Shown here: positions 32,915-57,792 of the stretch, in pieces
How positions within the stretch are numbered: position 1 is the first letter of the stretch
How the letters are laid out: the number at the start of each line of letters is the position of its first letter
Virus record (IMG/VR): IMGVR_UViG_3300017990_000011
DNA: 64,000 nucleotides
Reading direction: 5' to 3' (one strand)
DNA from: an uncultured virus (IMG/VR IMGVR_UViG_3300017990_000011)
Taxonomy: Duplodnaviria; Heunggongvirae; Uroviricota; Caudoviricetes
The notes under the pieces: generated by a model
Told to the model about the DNA's origin: nothing
Databases searched by the model: none
What the model saw: the letters and a program-made list of their open reading frames with translations, nothing else
Program-made: the position numbers and the translations under genes

Positions 32915-33130
32915 ATGATAAAAATAACTGCATTACAAAAGAGACACCCGCATAGACCCAGAAGAAAAGTATTCAAGTGTTGTAAATGTCATCGAGAAAA
33001 TTGGTTTAACAGCATAGCACCGATGAAATGTCAATATACCAGTTGTCAACAAGACTTTAAGAACATGGTGTTAATAACCGAGGACAATGAGAAAGCAAGA
33101 ATAGCCTATTACAAAGAAGGAATAATGTGA
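32915..33130 (+). CDS. zinc-ribbon array member 7
   Basis: CCKC...CQYTSC...ARIAYY. Confidence 0.75.
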   Translation: MIKITALQKRHPHRPRRKVFKCCKCHRENWFNSIAPMKCQYTSCQQDFKNMVLITEDNEKARIAYYKEGIM

Positions 33131-33345
33131 TGCTCAAAATAGAAATGCTAGAATTAGAGTCAGACTTTTCCAAATTCAGAGCAAACTTCACATGCCCCAA
33201 CTGTAATAGTATAGTTTGGTTTTTTAGTAAAGAAGACGCACCAAACGAATGTCCTTATTGTTACTACGACTTCATCAGATTATTTGGCTTAGTGAATGGT
33301 TACCGATTTGCCAGGCATAGCTATTATAGGTACGGAGATACATAA
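33127..33345 (+). CDS. zinc-ribbon array member 8
   Basis: CPNC...CPYC...ARHSYY. Confidence 0.75.
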   Translation: MMLKIEMLELESDFSKFRANFTCPNCNSIVWFFSKEDAPNECPYCYYDFIRLFGLVNGYRFARHSYYRYGDT

Positions 33346-33526
33346 TGTTTAAATTTACAAGCAAAGGGCTTATTGAAGAAGGAGAACCCTGGGACATCAC
33401 GATAGAAGATCATATTGAGATAGAAAAAATATTCTCAGCAGCAGCAGACTATAACCCACTCGAGAAGATAGATGGAGTGTGGCAACACATGTATGAAGAT
33501 AATCATACTAAAAGGTTATTATAAAA

Positions 33527-33754
33527 GTGATCTCAATACAAATACGCAGTGTAGACTTTAGCAGTAAACAGATGGTAGGCTACATCTACTGTCCAGACAC
33601 AGACTGCAAAGCTCAGGTATTGATCTATACATTAGATAGAACACCTGACTTCTGTCCGTATTGTCAAAGAGATCTAAGATTACATGGTGGCTTAGCACGG
33701 AGAAATAAACATGCTATGCTAAGGCATTATAATATAGGAGATGTTGGAGGTTAA
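33527..33754 (+). CDS. zinc-ribbon array member 9
   Basis: CPDTDC...CPYC...AMLRHY. Confidence 0.7.
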   Translation: MISIQIRSVDFSSKQMVGYIYCPDTDCKAQVLIYTLDRTPDFCPYCQRDLRLHGGLARRNKHAMLRHYNIGDVGG

Positions 33755-34363: not shown

Positions 34364-34811
34364 ACAGTGAATAGATTAATCGGCGTTAGTAGGATCAACA
34401 TAGATCTGGAATTAGTATCAGGCACTTTTGTCTGCCAGGAATTCATAACACCAGATTTCACTGAGGTAATTAGAACCGTACTGAGTGACGACAGTAATAT
34501 GAATATAAAAAAGATTGATGTCATGCCAAATATGAATCCTATACCAGTGAATTCTTCACCAATGGGGTTTATATATTAGGAAAGGAAAATCAATATGTTT
34601 GGTCCACATTTTCCAGGTATGCCAAAGATGACCATACCTGTTACTAAAAGCGATGTAAAAATAGCTAAGCGTATGGCGAGTGGTAGTCTGATGTTTACTG
34701 AATTCAGAGGATTCGATTTAGATTTGAGAAGCTCTATAAACAATATATTCGATGGTGATCGAGATATTGATCACGCAATTATAGAAACATATATTGAAGA
34801 GGAGGATTGGG

Positions 34812-35060
34812 ATGAAGGACACGAATGGGGGTACTGTTAAACCACGCAAAGAAGATCGCGTACCAGTGATTGAGAAGTGCGAGGGCTGCGAGCGCACTGA
34901 AGTAATCAACGATCAGGAACTGTGCTTGGCTTATCTCACACCAGCAGAACACTGGCGCCTGGGTGATTGTCCACTCGGTACCCATGTGGTCACCATGGTA
35001 AGTGAACAGCAACAGGGTAAGAAGCGTGTCGGACAGCAAAAACAGAAGAGGGGTAGGTAA
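34812..35060 (+). CDS. PxxKW-like cysteine-rich protein
   Basis: PVIEKCEGC...LCLAYLTPAEHWRLGDCPLGTH plus basic tail. Confidence 0.6.
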   Translation: MKDTNGGTVKPRKEDRVPVIEKCEGCERTEVINDQELCLAYLTPAEHWRLGDCPLGTHVVTMVSEQQQGKKRVGQQKQKRGR

Positions 35061-35244
35061 TGGGCACTCTACGTTGTCATATTGATACAACATACATCGA
35101 CAAGTTCGGCAACTCCATTACCAGTTGGAGATCTATCCCTGGTAATCTAAAAAAGGGTATAGAGAATGTAATGGAGAACTTCGCTTATGAAGACAGAGAT
35201 CTTCTATGCGTTGATCTTGAGGTCAAGGAAGGCTACTAACACAC

Positions 35245-35330
35245 GGCCCAGTGGTGGAATTATGGTAGACACAGCAGGCTTAAGACTTGCTGCTCGTAAG
35301 AGCGTGAAGGTTCAAGTCCTTCCTGGGCTA
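35245..35330 (+). tRNA. tRNA-Leu(TAA)
   Basis: Acceptor GGCCCAG/CTGGGCT; anticodon arm GCAGG-CTTAAGA-CTTGC; long variable arm; T arm GAAGG-TTCAAGT-CCTTC; no encoded CCA. Confidence 0.9.
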
Positions 35331-35762
35331 AAGAATATCTTTGAGATTAGAATAATCTTTAACAAGACGCTGCCTACTCTTTGGCATGGTTTTGTGTGAA
35401 GAATATTCTTCTCTAAATGTTAGTGTTCTCTTAGTTTTTATATCTTTAGATAAAATAAAACATGTTGTATCAATTGGTTTAATATAACAGGCAACCATAT
35501 CACATGAATTAGAATCAAATAACTTCACTCTGTTGCCATTGTTGTTGCTTCGAGCTGCCCTTATTGTTATAATATAGTTACCATTTTTGTCTAGTGAATT
35601 AGTGGACTTAACTTCTACACGAAGTAGGTTTCCATCTTTAACCGCTATAAAATCGAAAGGATCATTACCTTCGGAAAATGGTGTAAAAACTGTATAGTCC
35701 AATTTCAAGAATTCAGTAATAGCCTTAGCTTCACCAAGGCTGCCAAGTTTTGTAGTTATCAT
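35328..35762 (-). CDS. PD-(D/E)XK free-standing endonuclease (group I intron-associated type)
   Basis: GSLGEAKA...PFDFIAVKDGNLLRVEVKST; SD AGGAGG before ATG 35762; AT-rich. Confidence 0.8.
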   Translation of the reverse strand: MITTKLGSLGEAKAITEFLKLDYTVFTPFSEGNDPFDFIAVKDGNLLRVEVKSTNSLDKNGNYIITIRAARSNNNGNRVKLFDSNSCDMVACYIKPIDTTCFILSKDIKTKRTLTFREEYSSHKTMPKSRQRLVKDYSNLKDIL

Positions 35763-35850
35763 AATATTAACCCTCCTACATATAGGAAGGTTAGTTAAAC
35801 ACAACTGACACCCACTCATGTGTGTTAGTATTACCGTAGAGGGAGGTAGT

Positions 35851-36693
35851 ATGACTATCAAAAGCAAAGTTGGTTTAGAGGCAGAATTTCTGTTAAGAGA
35901 TTCTAAAGGTAGTGTAATCATTCCACCCGCCGGTTGGGATCGAGATGGGTTCCCACTGTTGGCCGAGATTCGTGGTGAGGAAGCTGAGACAGCGGCAGAA
36001 GTAGTAACAAACTTCATGGCCAAGAAACTGGAGATCGTCGGCCGTATGCGTAAGACGCAGACCATGGATTTTGCTGCGTTAGAACGTATTCCCCTGTCCC
36101 TGTACAAGAAAGCCAATCGGGAAATCAATCCTGATGAGAAAGCAGGTATGGTCGATAAGATCCGCAACATCCATGACATCGACATCAACGAGTTCTCTGA
36201 CCAGGTCATTAAGAAGAACAAGATCCAAGGACTCAATGTCAGTTGCGGCCTCCATGTCCACTTCTCATGTATGGAAGTAGATGAGACCGAGGTTAAGAAA
36301 GCGGAATACGAGAGCGTCAACATCCCCATCAGCCAGGTCTTTGCGGAGGATATACCAGCAGCTGATGGCAGAGTGATGGCAGAACTGATGCGTCCTCATC
36401 TCAATCTCTATCGCTATAAGGGATACGAGGTAGAGGAGACTCTTACTGCAATGGCCAGTCGGCTCAACAAGCCAGCAGTTCTCCACATCGTGGATGCCAT
36501 GGACAAGGCGTTCTTCGATCGGTTCGCACCGCCGGAAGACAGGCGTACCAAGTACAGACAGCCAGGTTTCTATGAATTGAAACCCTATGGCTTCGAGTAC
36601 CGGTCTCTTCCAATGACCGATGAGGTGGAAGCGCATCTCTTTGAGATCGCCACCACAGCGTTCGAGATTCTGGAGGACGTCAACGAGTTCTAA
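35851..36693 (+). CDS. COOH-NH2 ligase (glutamine synthetase / glutamate-cysteine ligase fold)-like protein
   Basis: VGLEAEFLL; DG...AEIR; GLHVHFS; YELKPYGFEYRSLP. Confidence 0.75.
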   Translation: MTIKSKVGLEAEFLLRDSKGSVIIPPAGWDRDGFPLLAEIRGEEAETAAEVVTNFMAKKLEIVGRMRKTQTMDFAALERIPLSLYKKANREINPDEKAGMVDKIRNIHDIDINEFSDQVIKKNKIQGLNVSCGLHVHFSCMEVDETEVKKAEYESVNIPISQVFAEDIPAADGRVMAELMRPHLNLYRYKGYEVEETLTAMASRLNKPAVLHIVDAMDKAFFDRFAPPEDRRTKYRQPGFYELKPYGFEYRSLPMTDEVEAHLFEIATTAFEILEDVNEF

Positions 36694-36863
36694 AGGAGTT
36701 AACATGGATTCCTATAGTGATACACAAATCAAATGTCCCGAATGTCGTGCTGAACACTGGTGTCTCAGCAAGACAAGGATGCCGTACGTAGGGCCTGGTG
36801 ACTCCAATGTCACCATCTGCAAATGCAACAAGTGTGGTCACAAATGGGAAGAAATTGATTAAA

Positions 36864-36946
36864 GGGGGGTTATCCCGTAGGGGTAGCGGTGCTGGCTGTA
36901 AACCAGTTGTCAATTGGCTCGGGTGGTTCGACTCCATCACCCCCCA
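36864..36946 (+). tRNA. tRNA-Tyr(GTA)
   Basis: Acceptor GGGGGGT/ACCCCCC; anticodon loop CTGTAAA; T arm GGTGG-TTCGACT-CCATC. Confidence 0.88.
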
Positions 36947-37314
36947 ACGAAAGGACTGTCATGGAAATATCAGTAAGTTCAAAAGCCATGAAAGAAATCT
37001 CAGAATCCTTGAGGTATTACCTCTCAAGATACGGTATGGGGATGGATGAACAAGTCATTGAAAATCTTAATGCCGTTATAGAATTAGGCGAGAAAGGAGA
37101 GCCATGCAGTATACACTCTATTGGTTGGACGGTAAGCGGGAAGTAGTCGAAGGCGATAGCATAGCACAAGCAATGACATCAGCAGGTTATGGTGCTGGTG
37201 CTGTCAGAGCCCTGGACTTCTACGCTGATGGTGATGACCACAACTATGTCTGGAAACAATTAACCTCTATTGGATCCACGAAGAAAGTATGGCAACGGAA
37301 GCCATAATATAAAC

Positions 37315-37385
37315 GGCGGCATAACCAAGTGGTAAGGTAGCTGGCTGCAACCCAGTGTTCGGTGGTTCGATTCCATCTGCCGCCT
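37315..37385 (+). tRNA. tRNA-Cys(GCA)
   Basis: Acceptor GGCGGCA/TGCCGCC; loop CTGCAAC; U73 discriminator. Confidence 0.9.
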
Positions 37386-38229
37386 TAGGAGATATCATGA
37401 AAGTTAAACTAGAGATAGACACAAACAATCCCTTTCCTGGTGCATTTGACTTCTTATCTGCCCGGCATCTCAGTGGTCCACAACCACTAGGCTTTAAGGT
37501 ATTTGCAGTATTCGTATTAATCATGGCTATCATCTCGCTTGTAGCGTTCTTTATGTTGACACCCAGTGCTGAAGCGGGTGAAAGAAGTATCACCTCAATG
37601 GATAGGGAATTAAGAAGGTCAGTACCATGCAACGGACATGTTGAGGGTCCTGTGTATCTCAGAAACCTTTTCAAAGGTGCCAGTATACCACAGTATGCAT
37701 GTTGGCATGATGTAGACAGAGATGGTAATCCAGATGTAGCACTCATCTATATATTTAACATAAACGACAACATGTTCGAATTAGTCAGAGCCATGAGGAT
37801 GATAGAATACTTCCATGTGGTAGAAGACGAAAGGGCTTTGGAATGATTACCGTATATATAATACTAGCTATCTTATTCATATCATCGTTCCTGTTGGCAA
37901 CAACAAAGTACTTCGACCTGAAGGATGTGTCGGTGATGTGGTGGGGGATGACCCTGACAATCATAGCTGGCTTTCTCTTTAGGTTCGGTATGTTTATATT
38001 CGAACAGGCCATTAAATGGAACTCAATCTCATTCTTATGGGGAGGTGCCTACTAATGTTCTTAGAAATATTAGTATTATTAATTATGGCAACAGTCATAC
38101 TGTGGCTGTTCGGCGTTGACTGGGAAAAATTAGCCGGTATATGGGCGAGCTTAGTTGCATGGTTATTGTTCGGTTTGTTCATCGGCGCAAGTGTGTATTA
38201 CTTTAATCAAATGATGGCAGGAGGGTAAC

Positions 38230-38742
38230 ATGGAAGTATCAGGATTCCAAATCAAAGAAGCATTGAAGATGAAGAACTTAGAGCTGGATGCTGTTCGGCT
38301 GCAGTTTGATGATTCACTTCATGCCTTCAAAGATGAAAAGAAAATGTCCCCGCAAGAGATCATGACAGAGGTCTCGAAGCTGGAACAGGAGATTGCTGTA
38401 CTTCAAACGGCGCAACGAATCTTCAATCTTGAAACAATCGTTAAGGTAGGTGAAGCTACCATGCCGTTGGAAGCAGCGATCAAACTGGTTGGTGGTGCCG
38501 GCCGTTCATCTGGTATGTGGCGTAAAGCCGCGGGTTCACGGAGACGCAGAGGTTACTACAATGAGCCGTCTCTGTCCCGTAGAGCCGATGAGGAACAGGC
38601 ACAACCAACTGTATCAAGGGCAGAAGCCCTCCAATTTGCTAAGGAGGCGGAGAAGTTTGCTTCACAACTCCGTGGTGCCATAGCTGTTGGTAATACCCAG
38701 AAGGTAGACATTGATTCGGTGACGCCTGCGTTGCTGGATTAA
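38230..38742 (+). CDS. DIP1984-like helical protein
   Basis: IKEALK...SPQEIM...LQTAQRIFNLETIVKV...MPLEAAI; similar architecture to 39813. Confidence 0.5.
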   Translation: MEVSGFQIKEALKMKNLELDAVRLQFDDSLHAFKDEKKMSPQEIMTEVSKLEQEIAVLQTAQRIFNLETIVKVGEATMPLEAAIKLVGGAGRSSGMWRKAAGSRRRRGYYNEPSLSRRADEEQAQPTVSRAEALQFAKEAEKFASQLRGAIAVGNTQKVDIDSVTPALLD

Positions 38743-38749
38743 TGTTGTA

Positions 38750-38919
38750 GGAAGAATGAGTCGCCTACACAGATTAGGTGAGAGGTCACCTGGCTGGTTC
38801 CCTCGGCTCGGGTTCCTTGTTACTGAGGCTAGCAAACTTTCTAAATGTACGCCCACAAACAAACCCGTCTAAGGTAATTTGGGAAAATACGATACTCGTT
38901 TCTAGTGATTCATTCTTCC
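38750..38919 (+). ncRNA. putative structured RNA downstream of DIP1984-like gene
   Basis: 15-bp closing stem GGAAGAATGAGTCGC/GTGATTCATTCTTCC with internal hairpins. Confidence 0.55.
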
Positions 38920-39045
38920 GCCTTATACAAGGCGGAGATTTACAATGCCGCCTTATACACACCTGGATCAAGGCGGGGGTATCACGCCCCCGCCCCTGGT
39001 GTAGCTTTAAACCGTGGGGGCCCTAGTGGCCCCCACCTGGCCTAT

Positions 39046-39118
39046 TGGCGTGTAGCTGAGTTGGCACAGCAGCTGGCTGTTAACCAGAAGATCGAAGGTT
39101 CGAGCCCTTCCACGCCAG
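39046..39118 (+). tRNA. tRNA-Asn(GTT)
   Basis: Acceptor TGGCGTG/CACGCCA; loop CTGTTAA; T arm GAAGG-TTCGAGC-CCTTC. Confidence 0.9.
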
Positions 39119-39134
39119 ACGAAGAGAGGTTAAT

Positions 39135-39677
39135 ATGATCTGTAATATCAAAGGTATCCGTGATTACCCAGATAGAGGTAGATGTGTGGGTAGTAGGGTC
39201 ATTCATGCAGCAGTAGGTAGTAATAATAGAGGAATTTATGTCTCAGCATGTAATAGTAGGACATATTTCAGTCTCTCTACTGGCTTCGAAATATTAAAGG
39301 ACAGACCGGCCATCACTTGCAAGTCATGTCTTAAAGTGTTAGAAGCCTTGTCCAAACAAGTATCAAACATACGGTATGTATTGGCGCACAAGAAAGTGGG
39401 TTTATACTACAGCAGTTCAGAAGGCTGGGTACCCGATCTCAATGAGGCCACACTGTATAAGAACACCAAGTATATTAAGGGCATCATCGAATCCTACGTT
39501 TACTATAAAGATGGTAAGATCATAGATCGGTGGTATTGGGAAAACGGACAACGACTTCTGCGGATGCGTGGTGCTAACCACAAACATATAGCATCACGAT
39601 TCACCAAGGTACGTCATGAAGAAAGAGACTACCGAGTCATAAAGGTAAGAAGAAAGATAGAAATCATTGAGGGGTGA
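39135..39677 (+). CDS. hypothetical protein with H...C...CxxC zinc-finger-like domain
   Basis: VIHAA...ACNS...ITCKSCL. Confidence 0.6.
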   Translation: MICNIKGIRDYPDRGRCVGSRVIHAAVGSNNRGIYVSACNSRTYFSLSTGFEILKDRPAITCKSCLKVLEALSKQVSNIRYVLAHKKVGLYYSSSEGWVPDLNEATLYKNTKYIKGIIESYVYYKDGKIIDRWYWENGQRLLRMRGANHKHIASRFTKVRHEERDYRVIKVRRKIEIIEG

Positions 39678-39715
39678 CTCCTCAGGCCAGTACATCAACG
39701 CCGGTGTACTGCCCT

Positions 39716-39789
39716 GTGGCCGTAGCTCAATGGCAGAGCGCTGGGATGTGGCCCCAGTGACGAGGGTTCGATTCTCTCCGGTCACCCCA
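39716..39789 (+). tRNA. tRNA-His(GTG)
   Basis: Acceptor GTGGCCG/CGGTCAC; loop ATGTGGC; C73 followed by CCA. Confidence 0.9.
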
Positions 39790-39812
39790 TCAACAATCAA
39801 AAGGAGGATGAC

Positions 39813-40313
39813 ATGCATATCTTAGCAGCATTAAAAAAGATCAAGCATCTTGATCGCAAGAGTGAGAAGGATCTTCAACGTATTCGTCGGTGGTCTTCAT
39901 ACATCCAGGAGGGTGATGAGATCCCTGAAGTCAACAAGGAACAGCCCCTGTACGACGAGGAAGAAGTACGTCGTATGTTACAATCCGTCATGGATATGGC
40001 CAATGAAAAGGCACGCATTCGTCATCAGCTGCACAAAACAAACATGATGACTACCGTTACTTTCCAGGGCAAAGAGAGAACTATTGATGAGTTGCTCATT
40101 CTCCAAAGTATTATCATCCCGGCCAAGATCAACGCCCTGAATCACCTTAATCGTAAGGAGAAGGGCTACGGCCACCATGACAAAGCCGATCGAGTGATCA
40201 TGCAGTACGACCCCAAGAAGAAGACCAAGGCTATCGATGACCTTGAGAATCTGGCAGAGGAAGTTAATGCATTCCTCGATGAGGTCAGCATGAACACTGA
40301 ACTAGTGGAATAG
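39813..40313 (+). CDS. DIP1984-like helical protein
   Basis: ILAALKKIKHL...IQEGDEIP...LHKTNMMTTV...TIDELL...QYDPKK...LDEVSMNTELVE. Confidence 0.65.
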   Translation: MHILAALKKIKHLDRKSEKDLQRIRRWSSYIQEGDEIPEVNKEQPLYDEEEVRRMLQSVMDMANEKARIRHQLHKTNMMTTVTFQGKERTIDELLILQSIIIPAKINALNHLNRKEKGYGHHDKADRVIMQYDPKKKTKAIDDLENLAEEVNAFLDEVSMNTELVE

Positions 40314-40318
40314 GGTTT

Positions 40319-40521
40319 GGGGCATGCCTGGCGATAAAGATCTGCGAAAGGCAGACAATTGCAAAGGACTGGCTGGACTACCAGCACGTGACGGGCTTGA
40401 GTCTTAGGGTTTATTGGCTCAGGGCTTAGGATTTGATTCACAAATGAAAATCCTGAGTGTAGAATAAGGGTTTGAATTGTCGCTATCCTGCAGGTGCTCC
40501 TCAGGCAGCCAGGTGTGCCCC
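40319..40521 (+). ncRNA. putative structured RNA downstream of DIP1984-like gene
   Basis: 14-bp closing stem GGGGCATGCCTGGC/GCCAGGTGTGCCCC; several internal hairpins; heptamer-periodic core. Confidence 0.6.
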
Positions 40522-41221
40522 TACTTAACTGGAGTATATTATGAATGTATTCAAAATTAGAATGTATATAGGCTGGACCTTATTAATAGCTGGATGTCTG
40601 ATAGCATGGGTTCCCATTATTGGCGGCATCTTATCAATAGTAATAGGGTGTGTATTCCTAGTGCCGGGTATACTCGTAATACCCAGCAGTGATATGAAGT
40701 TCGGTGGCCGTACTGTTATCAAACGCAAACACACTATAACCATGACGAGGAATGATGATGATACCTATGAGCAAAGAAAGTCTAAAGAATTATAAGTTAG
40801 TCGATGGTGTGTTGGTATACCAACCGAATAAGTTTCGTATATACTGGGACAGATGGCTAACATCATGGACTGATCTAGCTGATGGTCTAGCTGGGGTGTT
40901 GACACTGGGTATTTGGAAGTCTGGGTTCTCATTCAAGATGATATGCTATCAGTCAAAGAGGAATTTGCGACGGTCTAAGGTTGCAAGTGATTACAACGAA
41001 GAAAAACGCACAAGACGTGCAGCATTTTGAGTGGAGGAAGGGGGGGGGGTATGGCCTATCCATGTTTTGGTTGTGGAGATGAAGTAGGCTCAGAATGCCT
41101 TTGTAAACTTTGCGAAGACATGATAAAGAAAGAAATTGTCAATGGTCAGTGGTGCTCAAAACACCAGATAATTCACTGGCGTGGTGAAGAGTGTCCACTA
41201 TGTAAGATTGAGAAACAAAAC

Positions 41222-41295
41222 GGTGGTATGGACTAGCGGACTAGGTCACGACTCTTTCACAGTCGAAATCGCGGGTTCGAATCCCGCTACCACCA
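41222..41295 (+). tRNA. tRNA-Glu(TTC)
   Basis: Acceptor GGTGGTA/TACCACC; arm CGACT-CTTTCAC-AGTCG; T arm GCGGG-TTCGAAT-CCCGC. Confidence 0.9.
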
Positions 41296-42112
41296 ACGGA
41301 GTATAACATGAATATGAAATTGAAAGACCCAAAGGAAACCAAATACCATATCGATATGATAAACAAACATCTGGCTTACTTTGATGAAGTTGTCCTATGT
41401 GTACCAAACGATGGGTTGTTTGAATTTCAGTTTATAAGCCCCGCACGTGGCGATGACCGTCTGTATATACACGGCTTTAAAGTGGTGCCGGAAGATTAGG
41501 AGAAAAAAATGATAAAGATAGATGATAAAACTGCGCAAGACACGATCAGTCTTCTAGAAGATTTCAGAATGCTGGCAATGGAAAATGAAGATTATGTGTC
41601 AGATATAGAAGGCACATTAGAAAAAATAGGCAATGTAAAAGGTACAATCAGTAAAGAACTACACAGCGGCTAAAGAATAGGAGTAATGTTATGTCTATCA
41701 GCAGGTTAAAAGCATTGAAACAAATGCGTGATAATACCAGTTCGTGTCTAGAGGTTGAATTCAGAGACATGGCTGACAAGTGTTCACACAGAAAGACACA
41801 ACCAGCACCAAGCCGTGGTGACAGTGATTGGTATAGTTGTACCAATCCTAAGAACTTCTGGGGACAGTATCTCACTGCTCACTGCTGTGTAAATGATTGT
41901 CCATTGTTGCAGGAGAAGAAGAATGGAAAAAAGCAAAACATTAAAGGCATTAGAGCACGCAAGTCACCGTCTAAACGAACTTCCTCATAGGTATGAGGAT
42001 ACTAATTTCAGATTGATTGAGAGCGTATTAATAGATAAATATGTAAAGGAATCTATTTCGGAGAAAGATATTCCACCACACTTCAGAGATCGTGTCAGAA
42101 AGATGAGGACTA

Positions 42113-43015
42113 ATGATGATACAGTTCGATCCCAAGAAAATTAATCTTACACTTGGTTCCCCTAAATATTTCATCGATTACTATGTGTTGTATGCGCCTG
42201 GTAATATCATCAACATAACCGAAACAATGATGAATCGCAGGAAATTTAAAAAGATTAAGAACGACAATAAGGCGTGCTTTGCTGGGTTTAGGTATATGGT
42301 GCAAAAATTTAGAAAGGATTATGGTAAGCCAGCTAACCGCATTCTTTTCAAATGTGACAAGGCATACAAACACATAATTAAGAAACATCATCTTACTGAT
42401 GAAGAAATAGAAATCTGGGTGAAGTTATGTCGTCGAAACAGATTGATGCCAAAGAATATTGGTGAACATTTCCTCAAAACTATGAACTATGTAGTGAATT
42501 TGGACACAGTATCCTATAACAGGCTCTACATGTATCTTACAGCAGCACGGTATATACAGGAGATGCCAGCCTTTGTAAGAGCTATGGTGCATCTGGTAGA
42601 TGAGGTGGGTATAGATTTCTTCATCGCATTTAGTATCGCATCGACTTGGTGTGCACACAACACTGGCCACCATATTATTAACGTGGGTAGAACTTATTCG
42701 CTAAATGGATTCCGTGGTGATATGAATGACCTCAAACACCAATCATTCAACCAGTTTAGTATAGTACAATCAGCAAAGTTGGCTAAGTATGCATTCAGTA
42801 AAGCGAAAGAAACACCAGTGTCAGAGATTAAGGAGTTAACATATTTCAAGCTACAAGACACTATCGATAAAGAGAGTTTGAAGAGAGGCCATCGGTATAT
42901 AATCAAACGTAGACACCTACTCAATAAAGAGGTGGTTAAGGCCGTTCGAACTGGTGATCTAAGCATAGTAGATAAAATCTATAAGGAGGATTTGAAACAT
43001 GGCAAGCAAGTGTAG
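42113..43015 (+). CDS. hypothetical protein
   Basis: 300-aa ORF with coupled start; no recognised motif. Confidence 0.7.
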   Translation: MMIQFDPKKINLTLGSPKYFIDYYVLYAPGNIINITETMMNRRKFKKIKNDNKACFAGFRYMVQKFRKDYGKPANRILFKCDKAYKHIIKKHHLTDEEIEIWVKLCRRNRLMPKNIGEHFLKTMNYVVNLDTVSYNRLYMYLTAARYIQEMPAFVRAMVHLVDEVGIDFFIAFSIASTWCAHNTGHHIINVGRTYSLNGFRGDMNDLKHQSFNQFSIVQSAKLAKYAFSKAKETPVSEIKELTYFKLQDTIDKESLKRGHRYIIKRRHLLNKEVVKAVRTGDLSIVDKIYKEDLKHGKQV

Positions 43016-43634
43016 TAAATGCGGTACCGAAAAAGTAATGCATTATCTGATGTTCTGTCCTAAATGCTATATACCAATAGGTTCAAACAGAACAGTGTAT
43101 GAACTATACAAGTGCTTATATCATGCAGAAGCTGTGTTGGAAGAGCCTGGCTTCAAAGACACATTTCTTAAGAAAGTCAATGAATATGTCGATCTAAGGA
43201 ATGAAAGCACTGTTTTACTAGCACGTGCTGATGAAGGTGATCCAGAAATGGAAATTGTAAATAGATTCTTCGATGCTTGTGGATGGACTGATGTTGATCA
43301 GGTATGGTTCGAAGTTAGCTATTAGGAGGATACGATGGGACGCAAAGCACCACAATATCCACCAAAGAACGCGATTAAGCCACCACCACCGCCCGCACCG
43401 CCCGCATTGACAGAGGGTAATACAATGGGTGGTAATGGTGTTATTTATGAACTCAAAGGTACAATAAGACCAATCAAACCACCACCTATGAAGATCGATC
43501 GACAAAAGAGTTCGATTTAACATCGAGAGCCGGTGCCAGGAGGTATAAGTTGGTGCTTTTACTGGTAAAACTGGTAATAGTAGTATCATGGTCGACATGT
43601 TTTAGTGGTCAAAAACTAAAATTAGGGGTTTTGA

Positions 43635-44153
43635 ATGAAACGCAATAGCAAATACGTAAAAGCAGTAATACAAGCCTACAGGATGGGGTACAGAGTAAAG
43701 GACGGTAAACTGTATAACGTAGATGGTAATGAACTAAGACCTTATGTCAATCCAACTGGTTCTGGGTATTGTGAGTTTACTATTAGGTGGAAAAACACAC
43801 GTCATAAAGTGCGAGTACATCACTTAATAGCATTCCAGAAGTTTGGCAACAAAGCGTTTGAACCAAGTGTGCAAATTAGGCATCTTAATGGCAATTCCCT
43901 GGATAATAGTTATAGTAATATAGGTATAGGTGATGCTAGTGCTAATTCTATGGATAGGCCACCAGAAGAAAGACATGCACACGCTGTTAAGGCAGCAACA
44001 GACAGAAGAATATTTACCGACCATGAGGTAGCTACAATGCGTCGTCTACATGCAGAAGGATGGACATATAAGCGACTTATGGAAGAATTTGGGGTCAAGT
44101 CAAAGGGACATATGTCTTACATAATTAATCATGATTATATCACTAATAAGTAG
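43635..44153 (+). CDS. HNH endonuclease (free-standing) with C-terminal HTH-like region
   Basis: VRVHHLIA...QIRHLNGNSLDNSYSNI...ASANSMD. Confidence 0.85.
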   Translation: MKRNSKYVKAVIQAYRMGYRVKDGKLYNVDGNELRPYVNPTGSGYCEFTIRWKNTRHKVRVHHLIAFQKFGNKAFEPSVQIRHLNGNSLDNSYSNIGIGDASANSMDRPPEERHAHAVKAATDRRIFTDHEVATMRRLHAEGWTYKRLMEEFGVKSKGHMSYIINHDYITNK

Positions 44154-46399
44154 TATTATATAGTTTATACGTTAATGAAGAGGATTACCTCAAAAGAAAA
44201 GATGTTCGATATCATTAACAATAACTATAAAGTGAGGTAATTATGCAGGCACATATGGTACTATCCCATGAACCAAAACCAGAAAGACTGTTTATAAAAC
44301 CAGGTCTATATTTAATAGGTAATGTAAAATGCCATAGAGCTATGAACATAAGAGTCTTTGGCGACATAATCAATGTGAAAACGGAGTGTGATCAGTTTTC
44401 TTATACTATTAGGGGTCGTGATCCAGTGACCGGCTTCTTTGTAGTATCACCACTATATGGTAAAGTATCTACCGCCATAAGCATTCATAATGATGAAGAA
44501 GCTTTCATGAATATGCCTAACGCATGTAAGAAATGTGCCAAGAAGAATAGAAATGCTCATACCAGTATAAACATAGGTACATTTGTATCACTTGATGACT
44601 TAGATAGTGATTTTGCTGAATTTGTGTTTGGTCTTATACCATTACCTACATTAGTAACATAGGAGCAGCCGTGGATACAACAAGTAAAGCACATGTAGAA
44701 TGTCCTCAATGTAATAATGCGGATGCTACCATTATCTTTGTTATGGTGCCGCCAAGAAAGCATCTTTCTACACAGAATGATGTCATATGGTGCGAAAATT
44801 GTGGTACTATTATGTTATATAATCCAGCTGTACAAAAGGTGAAGAAAGTATTAACTCCAATGTCAGTATTTGGTAGTAAACGAATAGGGGGTCCTTAATG
44901 GCCATATATAAACCAGCAAGTGAAGAATACAGCCTATTCAAATGCACCTTTCAGACTAAAAAGGGTAAAGAGACACGGTATGTAGTGGAAAGAGATCGTA
45001 CTACAGCCGGCTTGACACTCATGCTACAGGGTAGAATCAAGCACACCCATCCCAGTATTGATATCGAAAAGGTAGAGGACGCGGTTGTACCCAAAGGACT
45101 GAGAGTTGTGAAACACATTATAAAGATGAAGGGAAATCGTAATGCAGCGCGTAGAAATAAATAAATACTTTAATAATAAGGTAATAGCATTAGGTATGGA
45201 GCTTGATTGGTCTAGCGCTGATAAAACATTGGAAATTATGATTTGGAAATATAGTATATTAATATATTTGAATTAATTAGGGGTGATCATGACAACAGTA
45301 TTAGTAGCAGGTGGAGCCAACAATCTTGAAATTCCTTGTAGATTATTTGAGGATATGGATACTGCGGTTAAACGCTGTGCAGAGATATTCGGTGTTCCAG
45401 GCAGGGAGTTATCCAACGGTCGTGTAATATGGAGCAATGATGAGATAAACTTCGACAAGTATGATGATAACATCAAGAAGATATCTGAAATACTGTTTAC
45501 CAGACACTATTACGGCTGCGGTGCTCCAGACATCTTTGTGCTTAAGGAGGTACCATTCGATGAAGCATTCACTGGTTTCGATTTGGACTAGTATTATAGT
45601 ATTAGTACTACTACTACTAGTGGTACCACTGGCATCTGCTAAGCATCTGTATTGCAGTATGCCTACTGACACGCATGTGTACCACTTTTCTGTTAGTATA
45701 CACCCACTGGATGGATTTGTTGATGCTGATCTACCAGACGACAGTGGGTTCAATTATCTTGATATATCTAATTATGTTGAAGTGGGACCATCTGATACAC
45801 CTGGTTATACTGAATATAAGGTAATGGATGTAAGCTTTTTGAAAGATGATGTCCAATACCGCGTAACTATAATACCAGCTATAACAATGATAGACTTCAG
45901 AGACGCACCAAAAGTTGGCCGCTGGGTATATGGTTATGGTGGTGTATCAGAACCATTATATGTCAATGCAGTACCATCAATAGATGGGCTACAAATTTTG
46001 GAGATAAGATAATGAGTGTCGAAGTAATCAAAAACCTCAAGAAAGAATTTAACTTACCGATAAAAGTATGTGATGATTGTCTGGGTGATGGTACAATTAC
46101 TACATTCTGCGGGCATGATTTTGTGGAATACTGTCGAACATGTGAAGGAAAAGGCTATATAAAAATCAAAAAAGGAGAATAATATGGCTATGCCAAAGAA
46201 AGGACGTAGGAAGATCGTAGTAGATGAGATAGTACATTTCTATATGATCAAACCATATATCTTCGGTAATGATAGTGATTGTGGTGCTAACCTAACTGTT
46301 GAAATGCCAGATGGGTCGTACAAATCCAGACAATATCAGGAAGCTGTTACTCCGGCCATGGTTGAGGCACTCATCAGAGAAACTATTTAACATGATTAT

Positions 46400-46477
<78 letters not shown>

Positions 46478-46487
46478 GGAATCTATT

Positions 46488-46778
46488 ATGTATTTTGATG
46501 AAGATAAATTACTATCAACATATGACTGTAAAGTGGGTATGAGGGTTGTATTAGCTAGCCCAGACAGGAATTACAGCATTGGTGGCGCTAACCCCGCTGT
46601 AGATTCTAGATATGAATGTGAGGGCACTGTTGTTAAAGCTAAAGACGGAAGCGTTAGTGTTTCATGGGACAATGGTTCTCGTAATGGGTATAAAGATTAT
46701 GAATTAGCAGAAGTAGATGGTCCTGAAGGCATGTGTGATAGTATATGGGATAACCATCCATTATTTGATGATTTTTAG
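46488..46778 (+). CDS. Mib/HERC2-like small protein, paralogue of 20053
   Basis: KVGMRV...YECEGTV...VSWDNGSRNGY...EGMCDSIW plus 9 further residues. Confidence 0.65.
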   Translation: MYFDEDKLLSTYDCKVGMRVVLASPDRNYSIGGANPAVDSRYECEGTVVKAKDGSVSVSWDNGSRNGYKDYELAEVDGPEGMCDSIWDNHPLFDDF

Positions 46779-46854
46779 CCACCGTAGTTCAGTCTGGCAG
46801 AACGACTGCCTTGTAAGCAGTATGTCACGGGTTCAAATCCTGTCGGTGGCTCCA
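46778..46854 (+). tRNA. tRNA-Thr(TGT)
   Basis: Acceptor GCCACCG/CGGTGGC; arm ACTGC-CTTGTAA-GCAGT; CCA encoded. Confidence 0.92.
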
Positions 46855-47860
46855 TTCTTAAGGAGTAAATTATGGCAATGCCGGGAGTATGGAAAAGTGC
46901 GGATTTATCAGAGAAATACGATGAAGATCTATTCGAGTGCAAAAACTGCAATGTTGAATTTGCTCTAAATAGCGATAAAATCGAGGGTAAAAAGATAGTA
47001 TGCCCAGTATGCCAGCGTTCACTCAAAGCGTGGCAAAAAAGGTGGAATCCATAATGGACTTATTTCATGAAGAATACGGCACATATAATGACGACGCACT
47101 AGCGTTGGATATTGAAGCCGCCAAAGTATTAAAGCCCTTATTCGACAAATATGTTCGAAAAGGCTGCAGATTGAAAGAAATTGCATATATTATCACATCT
47201 ACTGTTTCAATGGAAGAAATGGAAAGAAGACTTACACGAAACAGTAAGATAGCAAAAGCAAAGAGGGATAATCGGGCCAATGTCAAAATTCAAACTGGAA
47301 GTATACAAGAAAAGGAAGACCGCAGAGAAGATAGGTGATAGATGGTGTGATATATGTGGTCATGAAATTCCTAAAGATTTTGAATTCTGGTTTATCTACA
47401 CCAATTGTCAAAAGCCTATCCTTTCAGCATGTAAGGTTTGTGCTGCAACAGTGGAGGTCACAGATGGCTGATAAAGAAGCGTTGAAAAGAGCATTATCAT
47501 TTATGATAGGTCTGATAGGTCTAATCGGTGCTGCAGCAATCTGGGCGTCACACACTGCACCACCAGAATGGGTAAGGACATGGTATGGAATAGCACTTAC
47601 ATGCACATCCTTTGCCGGTATATTGTCAATAATTGTATCTTTGATGGACTAGGTGATATTATGATGTACGTATTCGACATTTCATACCCAAAAGACGGTG
47701 TAATTGAATCTTTCTCTAAAAAGCTTGATTGTAAGACAGAGCAGGACGCATTTGACTATTTTAATGAGCTTTTAGAGCAATATCCCCCAGATAGATGGTA
47801 TTATTTGTGTAAATTCTATGAAGAAGATATGGAAAGTATGTTCTTCTAATCGAGGTACCT

Positions 47861-48688
47861 ATGAAGATATTATATGCAACAGATTTGCATGGAATTAAGT
47901 GGAAATTCGAGCGTCTTATGGAAATTAAAAAAGACTGTGATCTAATGATCATCGGCGCTGATATTCTACCCAAAAATCAGCAAAATATACACAAACAACA
48001 GTTCGGTTTTCTTACAAAGTTCCTGCCAAGGTTCTTCAAAGCTATAGAAGTACCTATAATCATCGATTTCGGTAATGACGATCATAAAGCACTCTATAAT
48101 GTATTTAAGGATTTAGTAGATAGGACACCAGATGTATATTATAGCCATAGGCGTTATTTTGATATTGGTGGGGTATGGTTTGCTGGCGTACATTTTGTTC
48201 CAGATTATCCGTTTGGATTAAAAGATTGGGTTAGACTGGATCGTAGTGATGACGATCCTTTTGACTCCAATATTATGCAATTTGGACCGCCTGTACTGTC
48301 CACTAAAGATGGATACGAAAATATTGCTGATTTCAACGGCTATCTTAGTAGTAATACTAGTATACAAACAGCATTACGCACTCTTGGTACTCCAGACGTG
48401 TTATTAGCACATAGTCCACCAAGAATGCTTGGTTTTGATGTTTGTTCTACTATGGAAGAAGTTGGTTCTCGTGCAGTAACTGACCACATCTTAGAAAACA
48501 AGATTAAACTTACATTACATGGTCATATTCATGAAAGTCCATTTATGTCTGGGAAAAGTATGGGGTCGCTCATCGAGGGCTCAATTTCGATTCAGCCAGG
48601 GCAAAACGGGATTAATGAATTGGTTTACTGTGAATTTGACTTGGACGACATTGAGGGGACTTATGCTAGAACAATTCGAAGAAGGTAA
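47861..48688 (+). CDS. Icc-like metallophosphoesterase
   Basis: YATDLHG; GADIL; GNDD; AHSPP; LHGHIHES. Confidence 0.85.
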   Translation: MKILYATDLHGIKWKFERLMEIKKDCDLMIIGADILPKNQQNIHKQQFGFLTKFLPRFFKAIEVPIIIDFGNDDHKALYNVFKDLVDRTPDVYYSHRRYFDIGGVWFAGVHFVPDYPFGLKDWVRLDRSDDDPFDSNIMQFGPPVLSTKDGYENIADFNGYLSSNTSIQTALRTLGTPDVLLAHSPPRMLGFDVCSTMEEVGSRAVTDHILENKIKLTLHGHIHESPFMSGKSMGSLIEGSISIQPGQNGINELVYCEFDLDDIEGTYARTIRRR

Positions 48689-48844
48689 ATTCGTTATTGT
48701 CGCCGGTGAAGGTGATGAAGCGTTTGTAATAAGACGGATTGACGAGGCAAATAAGAGACTGGCATTGAGTAATGGGGTTTGGGAACCCATGGATAAATGC
48801 AGAGTCGTTAAACACGATGATGTCGTCAGGAGAATAACTTATCA

Positions 48845-49402
48845 TTATACCGGAGTGTAGCTCAGTCTGGTAGAGCGCGCGGTTTGGGTCCGCGAGGTTC
48901 GCAGGTTCGACTCCTGCCACTCCGAACGCCATTTTTCCATATAATTTAATATCTTATCTTCTATTAAATGTCTGTAACCGCTGTGCCAATATGTGTGGTG
49001 GGTGGGACATAAGGGTATTAGATTTGAAGGATCATTGTTTTTATTGTTATTGTCTAAATGATGAACAGCAACTACACGCTTTTCACCACAAATAACACAC
49101 TCCCTCTTGTGGTGCTCAAAGCATGTTTTTCTAATAGTGTAGCTGCTATTAGGATTAGTTATATTTCCATAATTTGGATTATCCTTACCAGACCTAAAAT
49201 ATGTATTCGCACAACCATAAGAGCATGTAGTACTAGTTTTCCAATTCTTTATTGGTTCGTCACAAACCGGACATAGCTTCTTGTTATCTGGATTGAGATA
49301 ACAATGTTTTTCGTGTTTTGACAAAGAACATGAATTAGTTTTATGACCACAATATTTACAATTCCTATACACATAAGTTCCTGTAATACTAAATTTTCCC
49401 AT
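48845..49402 (-). CDS. HNH endonuclease with zinc-finger N-terminus
   Basis: ECVICG...VHHLDNNNKNNDPSNLIPLCPTHH; AT-rich; 3' end reads antisense through tRNA-Pro. Confidence 0.85.
   Translation of the reverse strand: MGKFSITGTYVYRNCKYCGHKTNSCSLSKHEKHCYLNPDNKKLCPVCDEPIKNWKTSTTCSYGCANTYFRSGKDNPNYGNITNPNSSYTIRKTCFEHHKRECVICGEKRVVAVHHLDNNNKNNDPSNLIPLCPTHHTYWHSGYRHLIEDKILNYMEKWRSEWQESNLRTSRTQTARSTRLSYTPV
48851..48925 (+). tRNA. tRNA-Pro(TGG)
   Basis: Acceptor CGGAGTG/CACTCCG; arm CGCGG-TTTGGGT-CCGCG; T arm GCAGG-TTCGACT-CCTGC. Confidence 0.9.
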
Positions 49403-49461
49403 ATGTTTGTCCCCCTACTAATAGGAGGATAGTTTATTAACCCTTAGCAAGGAGAAGACGT

Positions 49462-50205
49462 ATGTTTGATTATCTGGCAAGATATTTCGAAGATTGGAAT
49501 CTTTGGGATTGGACGTGGACGTTAACAGCCTCGATCGTCGCTATCTGGTTGGGGGCTCACTGGGGAGCTGGTGATTGGAACACAGTAATCAGCGTAATAA
49601 CCTGTCTGACAGGTCTCTGGTGTGTAATTTTGGTAGCAAAAGGACGTATCTTTAATTATTATGTTGGTATTATTAACGTAGTCGGTTATTCATGGATAGC
49701 TTACCAATATCAGTTATATGGTGAAGTCATGCTCAACGCCGGTTACTTCCTACCAATGCAATTCGTAGGTCTCTACATTTGGATGAATAATAAGGAGCCT
49801 AACGCGATTGACACGGTCAAAGTTAAATTTATGACCGCTGGTCAACGAATTATGTGGGGTTTTCTATCAGGGTGTGCTGTGATAACATACGCCTTCATTC
49901 TACAAAGAATGGGAGATCCGCTACCTCTTCTAGATTCTGCATCGACCGTTTTGTCCGTTATAGCAATGGTTCTAATGGCTTGGCGCTTTATGGAGCAATG
50001 GATTCTCTGGATTGTTGTAGATGTGGTTTCTATCGCTATGTGGTGGTTGATCATCGGCGAAAATGGCGCTAGAGATATTGCCATGCTCGTTATGTGGTCC
50101 GCTTATCTGATAAATGCTGTTTATGGGTTTATCGTGTGGATTAAGATGTATCAGGAACAACATTGCATCGATAATCACTATCCGCAACAAAACGTACTGC
50201 ATTAG
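49462..50205 (+). CDS. pnuC: nicotinamide riboside transporter PnuC
   Basis: Multi-TM; LVAKGRIFNYYVG; LYGE; PLLDSASTVLS; EQWILWIVVD. Confidence 0.9.
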   Translation: MFDYLARYFEDWNLWDWTWTLTASIVAIWLGAHWGAGDWNTVISVITCLTGLWCVILVAKGRIFNYYVGIINVVGYSWIAYQYQLYGEVMLNAGYFLPMQFVGLYIWMNNKEPNAIDTVKVKFMTAGQRIMWGFLSGCAVITYAFILQRMGDPLPLLDSASTVLSVIAMVLMAWRFMEQWILWIVVDVVSIAMWWLIIGENGARDIAMLVMWSAYLINAVYGFIVWIKMYQEQHCIDNHYPQQNVLH

Positions 50206-57299: not shown

Positions 57300-57792
57300 A
57301 AGTTTTCTGGTTCAGAATAAAGAATCAGAAGATCAATCCCTTCATAATAAACTTCTCGATGTAAATATGCGATTGTTTGACAGCAACAGAGAATATTATA
57401 GTATTATAGTACTAGTAATAGGCTATATGAAGAAGTTATTTGCAACAAACTTCTCTGACTATAGCCAGTTAAAAGGTATCTCTGGTGCTAATATCGGTAT
57501 TCCTATCAACATCATCGGCTTTGTCGATCAGCTTGGTAAAGTCCGAATCATGATAAACCCATCCATAAAGACACATTCCAAAAGAAAACAGATGGTATCA
57601 TCCAATTGTGGTTCCCTAGTATTACGTAAGGCTGTCAAAGTAGAGCGTAGTTGTAGGGTTCTTGTCGAATACTACGATGAAGATGGTAAAAAGAACAATA
57701 ATTTTTTCGAAGATAGGGATGCCTTTGTGATACAACATGAAATTGATCATAATAATGGTATATTGATTATCGATAGAGAAAAGAGGGAATAA
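57241..57792 (+). CDS. divergent peptide deformylase homologue
   Basis: QHEIDHNNG intact; motif 1 GISGANIG and motif 2 SNCGS altered. Confidence 0.75.
   Translation: MENMKVTNKSPQKSQYPSIKSFLVQNKESEDQSLHNKLLDVNMRLFDSNREYYSIIVLVIGYMKKLFATNFSDYSQLKGISGANIGIPINIIGFVDQLGKVRIMINPSIKTHSKRKQMVSSNCGSLVLRKAVKVERSCRVLVEYYDEDGKKNNNFFEDRDAFVIQHEIDHNNGILIIDREKRE

Follow-up and report, generated by a model that had tools for sequence, protein, structure and literature searches.

A small protein gene followed directly by a structured RNA was examined at positions 38230–38919 of a 64,000-nucleotide (nt) stretch of DNA from an uncultured virus (IMG/VR record IMGVR_UViG_3300017990_000011; Caudoviricetes), the whole of which is referred to here as the window. 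The gene encodes a 170-amino-acid product, protein A, and the RNA, termed RNA A, lies in a region of transfer RNA (tRNA) genes that also holds a second arrangement of this kind, formed by protein B and RNA B. A sequence-only reading of the window had described the first arrangement as a divergent copy of the second and had suggested that the two are cognate protein–RNA pairs embedded in the tRNA region. The features on which the analysis turns are as follows.

38230–38742, + strand: protein A gene, an open reading frame (ORF) of 170 amino acids with a TAA stop; DIP1984/DUF6847-like fold and homodimer, both predicted (AlphaFold model and match to 3kdq)
38750–38919, + strand: RNA A, a conserved structured RNA of ~170 nt made up of P1, P2, a long arm P3–P5, and a 3′ motif (folding z-score, covariance models, and covariation)
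38750–38764 with 38905–38919, + strand: P1, the closing stem, GGAAGAATGAGTCGC / GTGATTCATTCTTCC, 15 base pairs (bp) including two G-U pairs, opening 7 nt after the stop codon
38774–38793, + strand: P2, a hairpin pairing 38774–38781 with 38786–38793; GAGG loop, replaced by GNRA-like GAGA or GAAA in most relatives
38798–38885, + strand: long arm P3–P5 (model-fitted alignments and a three-sequence MAFFT alignment)
38892–38903, + strand: conserved 3′ motif ATACTCGTTTCT (family consensus aUaCUcGuUGCU), just 5′ of the 3′ arm of P1
39813–40313, + strand: protein B gene, 166 amino acids, DUF6847 family, relative of T5.085 and phrog_1491 (phrog_1491 E = 8.8e-10, AlphaFold model, and match to 3kdq)
40319–40521, + strand: RNA B, a structured RNA of ~203 nt closed by GGGGCATGCCTGGC / GCCAGGTGTGCCCC (folding z-score −3.44; kept in the relative L070)

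The protein A gene is preceded by a strong Shine–Dalgarno sequence (GGAGGG). In its AlphaFold model (predicted local distance difference test score, pLDDT, of 88), two long helices and a β-hairpin are followed by a third helix, a disordered Arg-rich loop at about residues 103–122, and a fourth helix. A homodimer was predicted with an interaction prediction score from aligned errors (ipSAE) of 0.55, against 0.01 for the best control, with contacts agreeing between runs to at least 93% and a pLDDT of at least 84; 20 of 30 solved homomers attain this mark, as does one of 23 monomers, and the score expresses the model's own confidence rather than a measurement. As modeled, protein A is probably small and dimeric.

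Relatives of protein A were taken from 68 loci (62 metagenomic and six from IMG/VR) by alignment-guided scans, which recovered relatives where IMG/VR scans with the single protein had returned none. Among 90%-identity clusters, protein A has 13 other matching proteins, and the family extends to 614 representative clusters at E ≤ 1e-3. No relative was found by tblastn among GenBank phages, and representative bacterial and archaeal genomes scanned with both protein alignments gave no match. Family searches with protein A were negative in Pfam, PHROG, NCBIfam, and PADLOC (best PADLOC E = 0.031); 14 members of the family lacked a DUF6847 match at E ≤ 1, so that protein A does not stand above the gathering cutoff of Pfam PF20935. 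BFVD yielded uncharacterized phage proteins only (best E = 1e-3), and PDB sequence searches with both window proteins and both profiles gave no significant match. At the level of structure, the Atlas neighbors of protein A belong to DUF6847 and "DIP1984 family" clusters, with template modeling (TM) scores of 0.74–0.85.

The closing stem P1, its two G-U pairs, and its distance of 7 nt from the stop codon can be read directly from the window, just as the sequence-only reading had them, and the AGGTGA-GAGG-TCACCT element that it placed inside the stem lies in P2, at 38776–38791. A junction of ~11 nt separates P1 from P2. In the long arm, P3 pairs TTCCC (38798–38802) with GGGAA (38881–38885), a consensus supported by relatives; P4 pairs GGGT (38810–38813) with ACCC (38863–38866) and continues with 38817–38819 against 38860–38862; and P5 pairs GGCTAGCA (38827–38834) with TGTACGCC (38846–38853). 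The arm keeps a conserved CCUU..UAC and the loop U.CUAAA (TCTAAATG at 38840–38847). The same reading had proposed a different inner arm, GCTGG..CCTCGG / CTGAGG..CTAGC, which is possible in the window sequence and absent from both the minimum free energy fold and the consensus of the relatives. That fold of 38750–38919 reaches −58.8 kcal/mol, compared with −42.2 ± 4.2 kcal/mol for 200 dinucleotide shuffles, none of which is as good (z = −3.92), so that the stability that had been expected of the element is borne out; for the longer interval 38743–39044, z is −5.74, with none of 100 shuffles as good.

Known RNA families did not account for either element. With Rfam 15 (4227 models, among them tRNA, transfer-messenger RNA (tmRNA), 6S, RNase P, signal recognition particle RNA, Y RNA, GOLLD, ROOL, and the DUF-associated phage motifs), tRNAs were the only matches in the window, and a permissive search of 34500–49500 (E ≤ 10, relaxed filters) found nothing overlapping 38750–38919 or 40319–40521. 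ARAGORN, which reports nine tRNAs elsewhere in the window, found no tRNA or tmRNA in 38743–39044 or 40314–40540. RNA A has no second copy in the window. It contains no tandem array by Tandem Repeats Finder, whose sole report was a weak 15-nt repeat at 38918–38959. An ORF at 38778–39026 was considered as coding sequence and set aside: it is a mechanical ORF, and the indels of relatives in this interval are not multiples of three.

Conservation of RNA A was assessed in the stretches 3′ of the relatives of the protein A gene. A search of each stretch for a perfect helix that opens within 60 nt of the stop codon and spans 150–215 nt returned a closing helix with a score of at least 10 in 29 of 51 distinct stretches, whereas 512 control stretches taken from these loci yielded 22; with a score of at least 11 required, 22 of 51 and 7 of 512 remained. 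The element measures 165–200 nt in the relatives and has a closing stem of 9–16 bp whose arm sequences vary by lineage, the span staying near that length. Two covariance models were constructed, R1 from the window and two relatives and R2 rebuilt on 11 sequences; RNA A of the window, itself part of the seed, scores 177.5 bits with R1 and 144.6 bits with R2. R2 gave 19 matches at E ≤ 3.7e-4 and, with filters off, one more at E = 4.2e-5 (L021), so that the element is found in the window and at 19 further loci, some of which are duplicate contigs. All 20 matches begin 1–32 nt after the stop codon of a protein A homologue.

In an alignment of 17 sequences, 89.6% of cells are paired, compared with 39–43% when the 3′ partners are slid by one to three columns; both partners have changed in 38 of the 39 modeled pairs, and no shuffle out of 500 attains any of the observed measures. 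All nine modeled P1 pairs covary, with 96% of P1 cells paired. These covariation alignments (17 sequences, and an earlier one of 11) were fitted to the model and lean toward its structure; the controls independent of it are the per-sequence stem search, a plain MAFFT alignment of three sequences, which shows compensatory change in 15 of 39 pairs, and a MAFFT alignment of 14 sequences. The RNA A alignment contains 61 G-U cells and 12 A-C/C-A cells, an asymmetry which argues that the element is read as RNA from the + strand rather than as a DNA hairpin. To judge from these patterns in the sequences, RNA A is a real RNA gene. In one relative (L004), the first copy of RNA A (982–1160) is immediately followed by a second, weak full-length R2 match (1190–1387; 20.6 bits, E = 0.035), which may be a tandem second RNA.

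Linkage of the RNA to the protein gene was evaluated by clustering every + strand ORF that lies no more than 2.5 kb from the protein A gene at 63 loci. No protein neighbor is common to more than four of these loci, and RNA A is the only constant partner of the gene. Genes for tRNA or tmRNA occur at 35 of 55 scanned loci, some of which carry 15–28 tRNAs. For six of 47 candidate elements, the closing stem is followed at a distance of 3–7 nt by the start of a + strand tRNA. RNase P cuts at the 5′ end of tRNAs, and such a cut would leave these six RNAs ending at the stem. Two relatives have a phage tmRNA gene inside a tRNA array at most 1 kb from the protein A gene (L033 802–1213; L038 5381–5729).

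Protein B was approached in the same manner. It has no significant NCBIfam match, and its match to PF20935 (DUF6847) is weak, at 13.1 bits and E = 0.097 against a cutoff of 27, covering profile positions 28–141 of 141; a precomputed PF20935 match is present in 15 of 89 protein B homologues. Weak similarity to DarP/YjgA was also seen (E = 0.016 and 0.06). The AlphaFold model (pLDDT of 90) has the same order of elements as that of protein A: helix, helix, β-hairpin, helix, basic loop, helix. For both models, the top structural match is 3kdq_A, with Z = 12.7 and a root-mean-square deviation (rmsd) of 3.7 for protein A (next-best Z, 8.4) and Z = 12.3 and an rmsd of 3.5 for protein B (next-best Z, 9.4), each over 149 of 152 residues. 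Both matches are thus near full-length and 3–4 Z units clear of the next row. Foldseek gave E = 3e-4 and TM scores of 0.64–0.70 for protein A against 3kdq, and E = 2.5e-2 and 0.69–0.74 for protein B. The models accordingly place both window proteins in the DIP1984/DUF6847 fold. The sequence-only reading had judged the proteins to look related, and it was right as to fold, Z exceeding 12 to 3kdq for both; at the level of sequence, no similarity can be detected between them (BLASTP E = 23; probability of 1.3% in hhalign of the family profiles).

RNA B, found after protein B, bears out the claim that the two elements match in position, size, and closing-stem design: RNA A and RNA B are alike in their placement after the gene, in being closed by a stem, and in length. 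RNA B contains a conserved GGCTGGACTACCAGC hairpin (40371–40385) and AGGTGCTC (40492–40499). Its conservation is seen in two sequences, the second being that of L070, a locus encoding a protein B relative of 44% identity. The L070 element has a closing stem unlike that of RNA B throughout, yet several unpaired motifs are the same in both, and compensatory changes affect 13 of 43 pairs. When IMG/VR was scanned for the exact pattern GGCTGGACTACCAGC, 119 stretches were returned; among the 80 examined, the contig of L070 was the sole true relative and the rest were chance-like. With filters off, R2 gave no match at the expected places in L070 or in T5-like loci.

The protein B family includes T5.085 (also T5p083 and ORF080); protein B matches the homologue in Enterobacter phage KKP_3711 by tblastn at E = 6e-3, and this homologue in turn matches 702 GenBank phage records, many of them labeled "tail fiber protein." In all seven cultured phages sampled (KKP_3711, DT57C, GAP31, PN09, Bennett, Desertfox, and phiCDIF1296T), an unannotated gap of 363–637 nt follows the T5.085-like gene, and in five of them a perfect helix of 16–21 bp, spanning 298–443 nt, brackets the gap. 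Closing stems spanning ~330–357 nt were noted in the gap of Escherichia phage DT57C (L081 3140–3581; about 33124–33565 of KM979354.1, minus strand) and at L069 4631–5014; that of DT57C has 21 bp (AAGCTAGTAAATCGGTAGACG / TGTTTATCGGTTTACTAGTTT), and inner motifs are kept between DT57C and KKP_3711. The gap after T5.085 looks like an RNA gene that has gone unannotated in a model phage.

The DT57C record also lists five stable RNAs of unknown function in the tRNA region (RNAI, RNAIII, RNA2H, RNA3, and RNAX). RNA2H (L082 5117–5288, minus strand) measures 172 nt, has a 10-bp closing stem, and does not adjoin the T5.085 gene; its folding z-score is −2.16, with five of 200 shuffles as good. To the eye, its 3′ GCTCGAAGCGAAGGTGCT resembles GCTCGAAGCT of the RNA A variants at L025, L034, and L036 as well as AGGTGCTC of RNA B, and a superfamily uniting RNA2H, these variants, and RNA B is possible. 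R2 matched none of the DT57C stable RNAs, RNA2H included. In the same cluster, T5.081 (L082 9679–10113, minus strand; 144 amino acids) lies directly 5′ of the 636-nt RNAX, a further case of a protein gene followed by a large stable RNA; it has a weak match, below cutoff, to the tRNA-related YqeY-like domain (E = 5e-4).

Around these pairs, nine + strand tRNA genes, interspersed with small ORFs, are spread over 35245–48925 according to ARAGORN and the ORF list. Two further features follow RNA A.

38918–39036, + strand: four GC-rich, lineage-specific hairpins between RNA A and the tRNA-Asn gene, with no T tract and outside the conserved unit
39045–39120, + strand: tRNA-Asn (GTT), the next gene 3′ of RNA A and the trailing hairpins

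The hairpins comprise two that begin with CCGCCTTATACA (38918–38935 and 38948–38976), which are the only occurrences of that sequence in the window, then GGGGGTATCACGCCCCC (38975–38991), and GTGGGGGCC-CTAGT-GGCCCCCAC (39014–39036). All of those in the sequence-only reading are indeed present, but as part of the architecture they fall away: the first of them is missing from the closest relative (L001, whose protein is 84% identical), and at the last the sequence of L001 diverges. An intrinsic terminator in this interval was rejected, the hairpins lacking a T tract.

In 34500–42500, no + strand terminator-like site was found, all eight such sites being on the − strand; promoter-like sites occur at chance frequency, and none above chance lies between the protein A gene and RNA A. 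From this distribution of sites, the stretch looks like one long + strand transcript. Directly 5′ of the protein A gene are two overlapping 70-amino-acid ORFs (37843–38055 and 38016–38228) of hydrophobic, membrane-like character, the latter common only to the closest relatives (three loci). A run of ~10 G, GGAAGGGGGGGGGGTATGG at 41030–41045, begins a small Cys-rich ORF (41027–41236) just 5′ of tRNA-Glu and may be a slippery or assembly-prone tract. The gene content of the window is that of a phage and includes nicotinamide mononucleotide adenylyltransferase, nicotinamide phosphoribosyltransferase, an Rnl1-like RNA ligase (57792–59003; phrog_562, E = 2.7e-7), COOH-NH2 ligase, and transglycosylase. 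There are two COOH-NH2 ligase-like genes (35818–36693 and 60673–61596), of which one is a clear match (E = 5e-60) and the other, within the tRNA cluster, a weak one (E = 0.0019). Together, the RNA ligase and the COOH-NH2 ligase-like genes give the appearance of heavy phage investment in RNA and tRNA biology. The window has no close relative among GenBank phages, where blastn matched tRNAs only. The stretch is present in eight public DNA sequencing runs, all of them sediment or seawater metagenomes.

The RNA is conserved and covaries, it is strictly linked to the protein gene, Rfam lacks it, and the two proteins share a fold. On this footing, we lean toward reading these pairs as co-evolving protein–RNA modules that form ribonucleoprotein particles in phage tRNA operons and that are present twice in this phage. 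Positions 38230–38919 would then be a two-gene module, comprising a small dimeric Arg-loop protein and a cognate, Y-shaped noncoding RNA of ~170 nt. Gene and RNA would be carried on the long + strand transcript of the tRNA cluster, and trimming would then bring the RNA down to its long closing stem, with RNase P cleavage at the next tRNA taking part in some relatives. Binding of the protein to the RNA would yield a phage ribonucleoprotein acting in trans during infection, most plausibly on tRNA, on translation, or on RNA-targeting host factors. Positions 39813–40521 would constitute another such module, separated from the first by an ancient divergence and related to T5.085 with its own unannotated downstream RNA. 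That the pairs are cognate, as first suggested from the sequence, finds support in the adjacency of protein gene and RNA across many loci and in the covariation, binding being the conditional step.

A wider proposal is advanced tentatively, as one that we hold to be slightly less likely than not. It takes DUF6847/DIP1984-fold proteins to be the protein component of phage ribonucleoproteins that make up a large class, so far undescribed, in which each lineage has a co-evolved RNA directly downstream, usually in or beside a tRNA cluster. The class would include the ~320-nt RNA after T5.085 in phage T5 and in phages related to it, along with comparable elements in rV5-like phages, jumbo phages, and phages of Clostridioides.

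Several results weigh against the ribonucleoprotein interpretation and its extensions. A plain MAFFT alignment of 14 sequences analyzed with RNAalifold recovered P2 alone (six of six pairs compensatory), and helices P3–P5 depend on alignments fitted to the model. Among more distant relatives (~40% protein identity, 24 loci), a search with filters off produced seven correctly placed full-length matches at E = 0.07–3.4; these seven stood among 26, the remainder being scattered short matches, and the membership of the distant loci in the family was judged by eye from a closing stem, a P2-like hairpin, and variants of the 3′ motif. With a tRNA adjoining only six of 47 elements, RNase P processing is not general. 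Homology between RNA A and RNA B is not indicated by R2, which has no match at 40319–40521 (E ≤ 1), and the chance control for the seven gaps after T5.085-like genes is one folding z-score, −5.40. The fold is helical, and Z values near 12–13 in helical proteins may mean a common arrangement only. No RNA run is listed among the public sequencing runs containing the stretch.

An alternative that we regard as unlikely is that the element acts in cis, as a 3′ untranslated element of the protein A mRNA that protects it from exonucleases after tRNA excision or serves autoregulation, with no trans-acting RNA. The constant start within 32 nt of the stop codon, the shared strand, the lack of a promoter-like site above chance between gene and RNA, and a region without + strand terminators, in which 3′ protection would be useful, all fit such a role. 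A simple hairpin would suffice for it, however, and the element has a three-way architecture whose unpaired motifs (the GNRA-like loop, the U.CUAAA loop, and aUaCUcGuUGCU) are kept while stems are wholly changed. Moreover, the RNAs retained beside proteins A and B are both elaborate and differ from each other although the proteins share a fold, and the six elements that abut a tRNA do so as stable RNAs in T5-like tRNA clusters do.

Still less probable, in our estimation, is an independent stable RNA of the tRNA cluster that is merely a neighbor of the protein gene, functionally unconnected with it. DT57C does carry annotated stable RNAs among its tRNAs, one of which, the 172-nt RNA2H, has a closing stem and a 3′ sequence resembling motifs of distant RNA A members and of RNA B, yet is not adjacent to the T5.085 gene. 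That resemblance is by eye and without an R2 match, and across the 63 loci the RNA is the sole conserved neighbor of a protein gene whose other neighbors are shuffled, and the tight spacing recurs in every model match.

Only a small chance is accorded to a toxin–antitoxin-like or counter-defense pair, a special case of the ribonucleoprotein reading in which the RNA neutralizes the protein or both act against a host defense. A gene pair of protein and RNA in a phage fits this idea, as does the Rnl1-like RNA ligase encoded in the window, and tRNA clusters are described as a putative antidefense system in PMC12803027. Set against it, PADLOC returned no family match, the RNA is not a tandem repeat array and lies downstream of its gene, unlike type III systems, and the fold is not nuclease-like. 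Finally, a feature that works at the level of DNA (a small mobile element bounded by terminal inverted repeats, a cruciform, or a recombination site) is very improbable: 15-bp terminal inverted repeats do enclose 140 bp, and phage tRNA clusters are hot spots for mobile homing genes, but the arms are conserved in complementarity and not in sequence, a DNA hairpin would not tolerate the observed asymmetry between G-U and A-C/C-A cells, the internal helices covary, and the element has no second window copy and holds a constant position relative to one gene.

The ribonucleoprotein reading bears on two groups of orphans. Stable RNAs of unknown function have long been known in phage tRNA clusters, and large phages commonly encode DUF6847 proteins, to which no role has been assigned; tying a conserved fold to a conserved structured RNA gives both a concrete particle hypothesis. 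Its reach is that of the representative clusters of the protein A family and of the GenBank phage records with a T5.085-like gene, and the structured RNA families that are new and missing from Rfam number at least one and probably several. Full-text literature searches returned nothing for DUF6847, 3KDQ, T5p083, or T5.085, and broader searches nothing on such a pair; for DIP1984, the work found was apparently unrelated, as judged by title and abstract. A survey of 10,006 candidate viral structured RNAs (PMC10690425) contains, in the part consulted, tRNA-like candidates and nothing identifiable as RNA A, which its supplements might list. Stable RNAs in phage tRNA clusters are a known kind; the conserved-fold partner appears to be undescribed, as do the RNA families reported here.

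Among known systems, the T4 species 1 and 2 RNAs are stable RNAs of phage tRNA clusters, and GOLLD and ROOL are structured noncoding RNAs found beside tRNA genes in phages; we know of no dedicated protein partner described for the latter two. PMC12286853 mentions tRNA arrays, and GOLLD and ROOL are presented as RNAs of 500–800 nt that form RNA-only assemblies. GOLLD and ROOL are in Rfam, whereas the RNA A and RNA B regions lack a match even at E ≤ 10. The stable RNAs of DT57C are likewise structured non-tRNA RNAs among tRNA genes of the same strand, some of them abutting tRNAs, but the annotation pairs none of them with a protein gene.

Bacterial Y RNA (YrlA), which also occurs in some phages, has a long closing stem and a gene adjoining that of its binding protein Rsr, a Ro60-like protein. 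RNA A differs in having no Rfam match and no tRNA-like module by ARAGORN, and protein A is a predicted helical dimer of 170-residue chains rather than a Ro ring of ~500 residues. In type III toxin–antitoxin systems of the ToxIN kind, tandem short RNA repeats precede the gene of an endoribonuclease toxin; membership of RNA A in this group was rejected on its lack of an array, its position downstream of the gene, and the missing PADLOC match.

The closest points of comparison are proteins. The structure of PDB 3kdq, a Corynebacterium diphtheriae protein of the "DIP1984 family," and PF20935 represent the fold common to both window proteins, with protein A lacking a match at the level of sequence. 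T5.085 and its kin differ from protein B in size, at 205–217 amino acids, and in being followed by longer elements of 300–440 nt, the gene likewise lying at or in the tRNA region. The "tail fiber" name attached to phrog_1491 and T5.085 is without support here, and the gene is misannotated in T5-like coliphages. If the ribonucleoprotein class does include T5.085, its function would be directly testable in E. coli, and the T5-like coliphages, in which the RNA is unannotated, would provide a tractable model.

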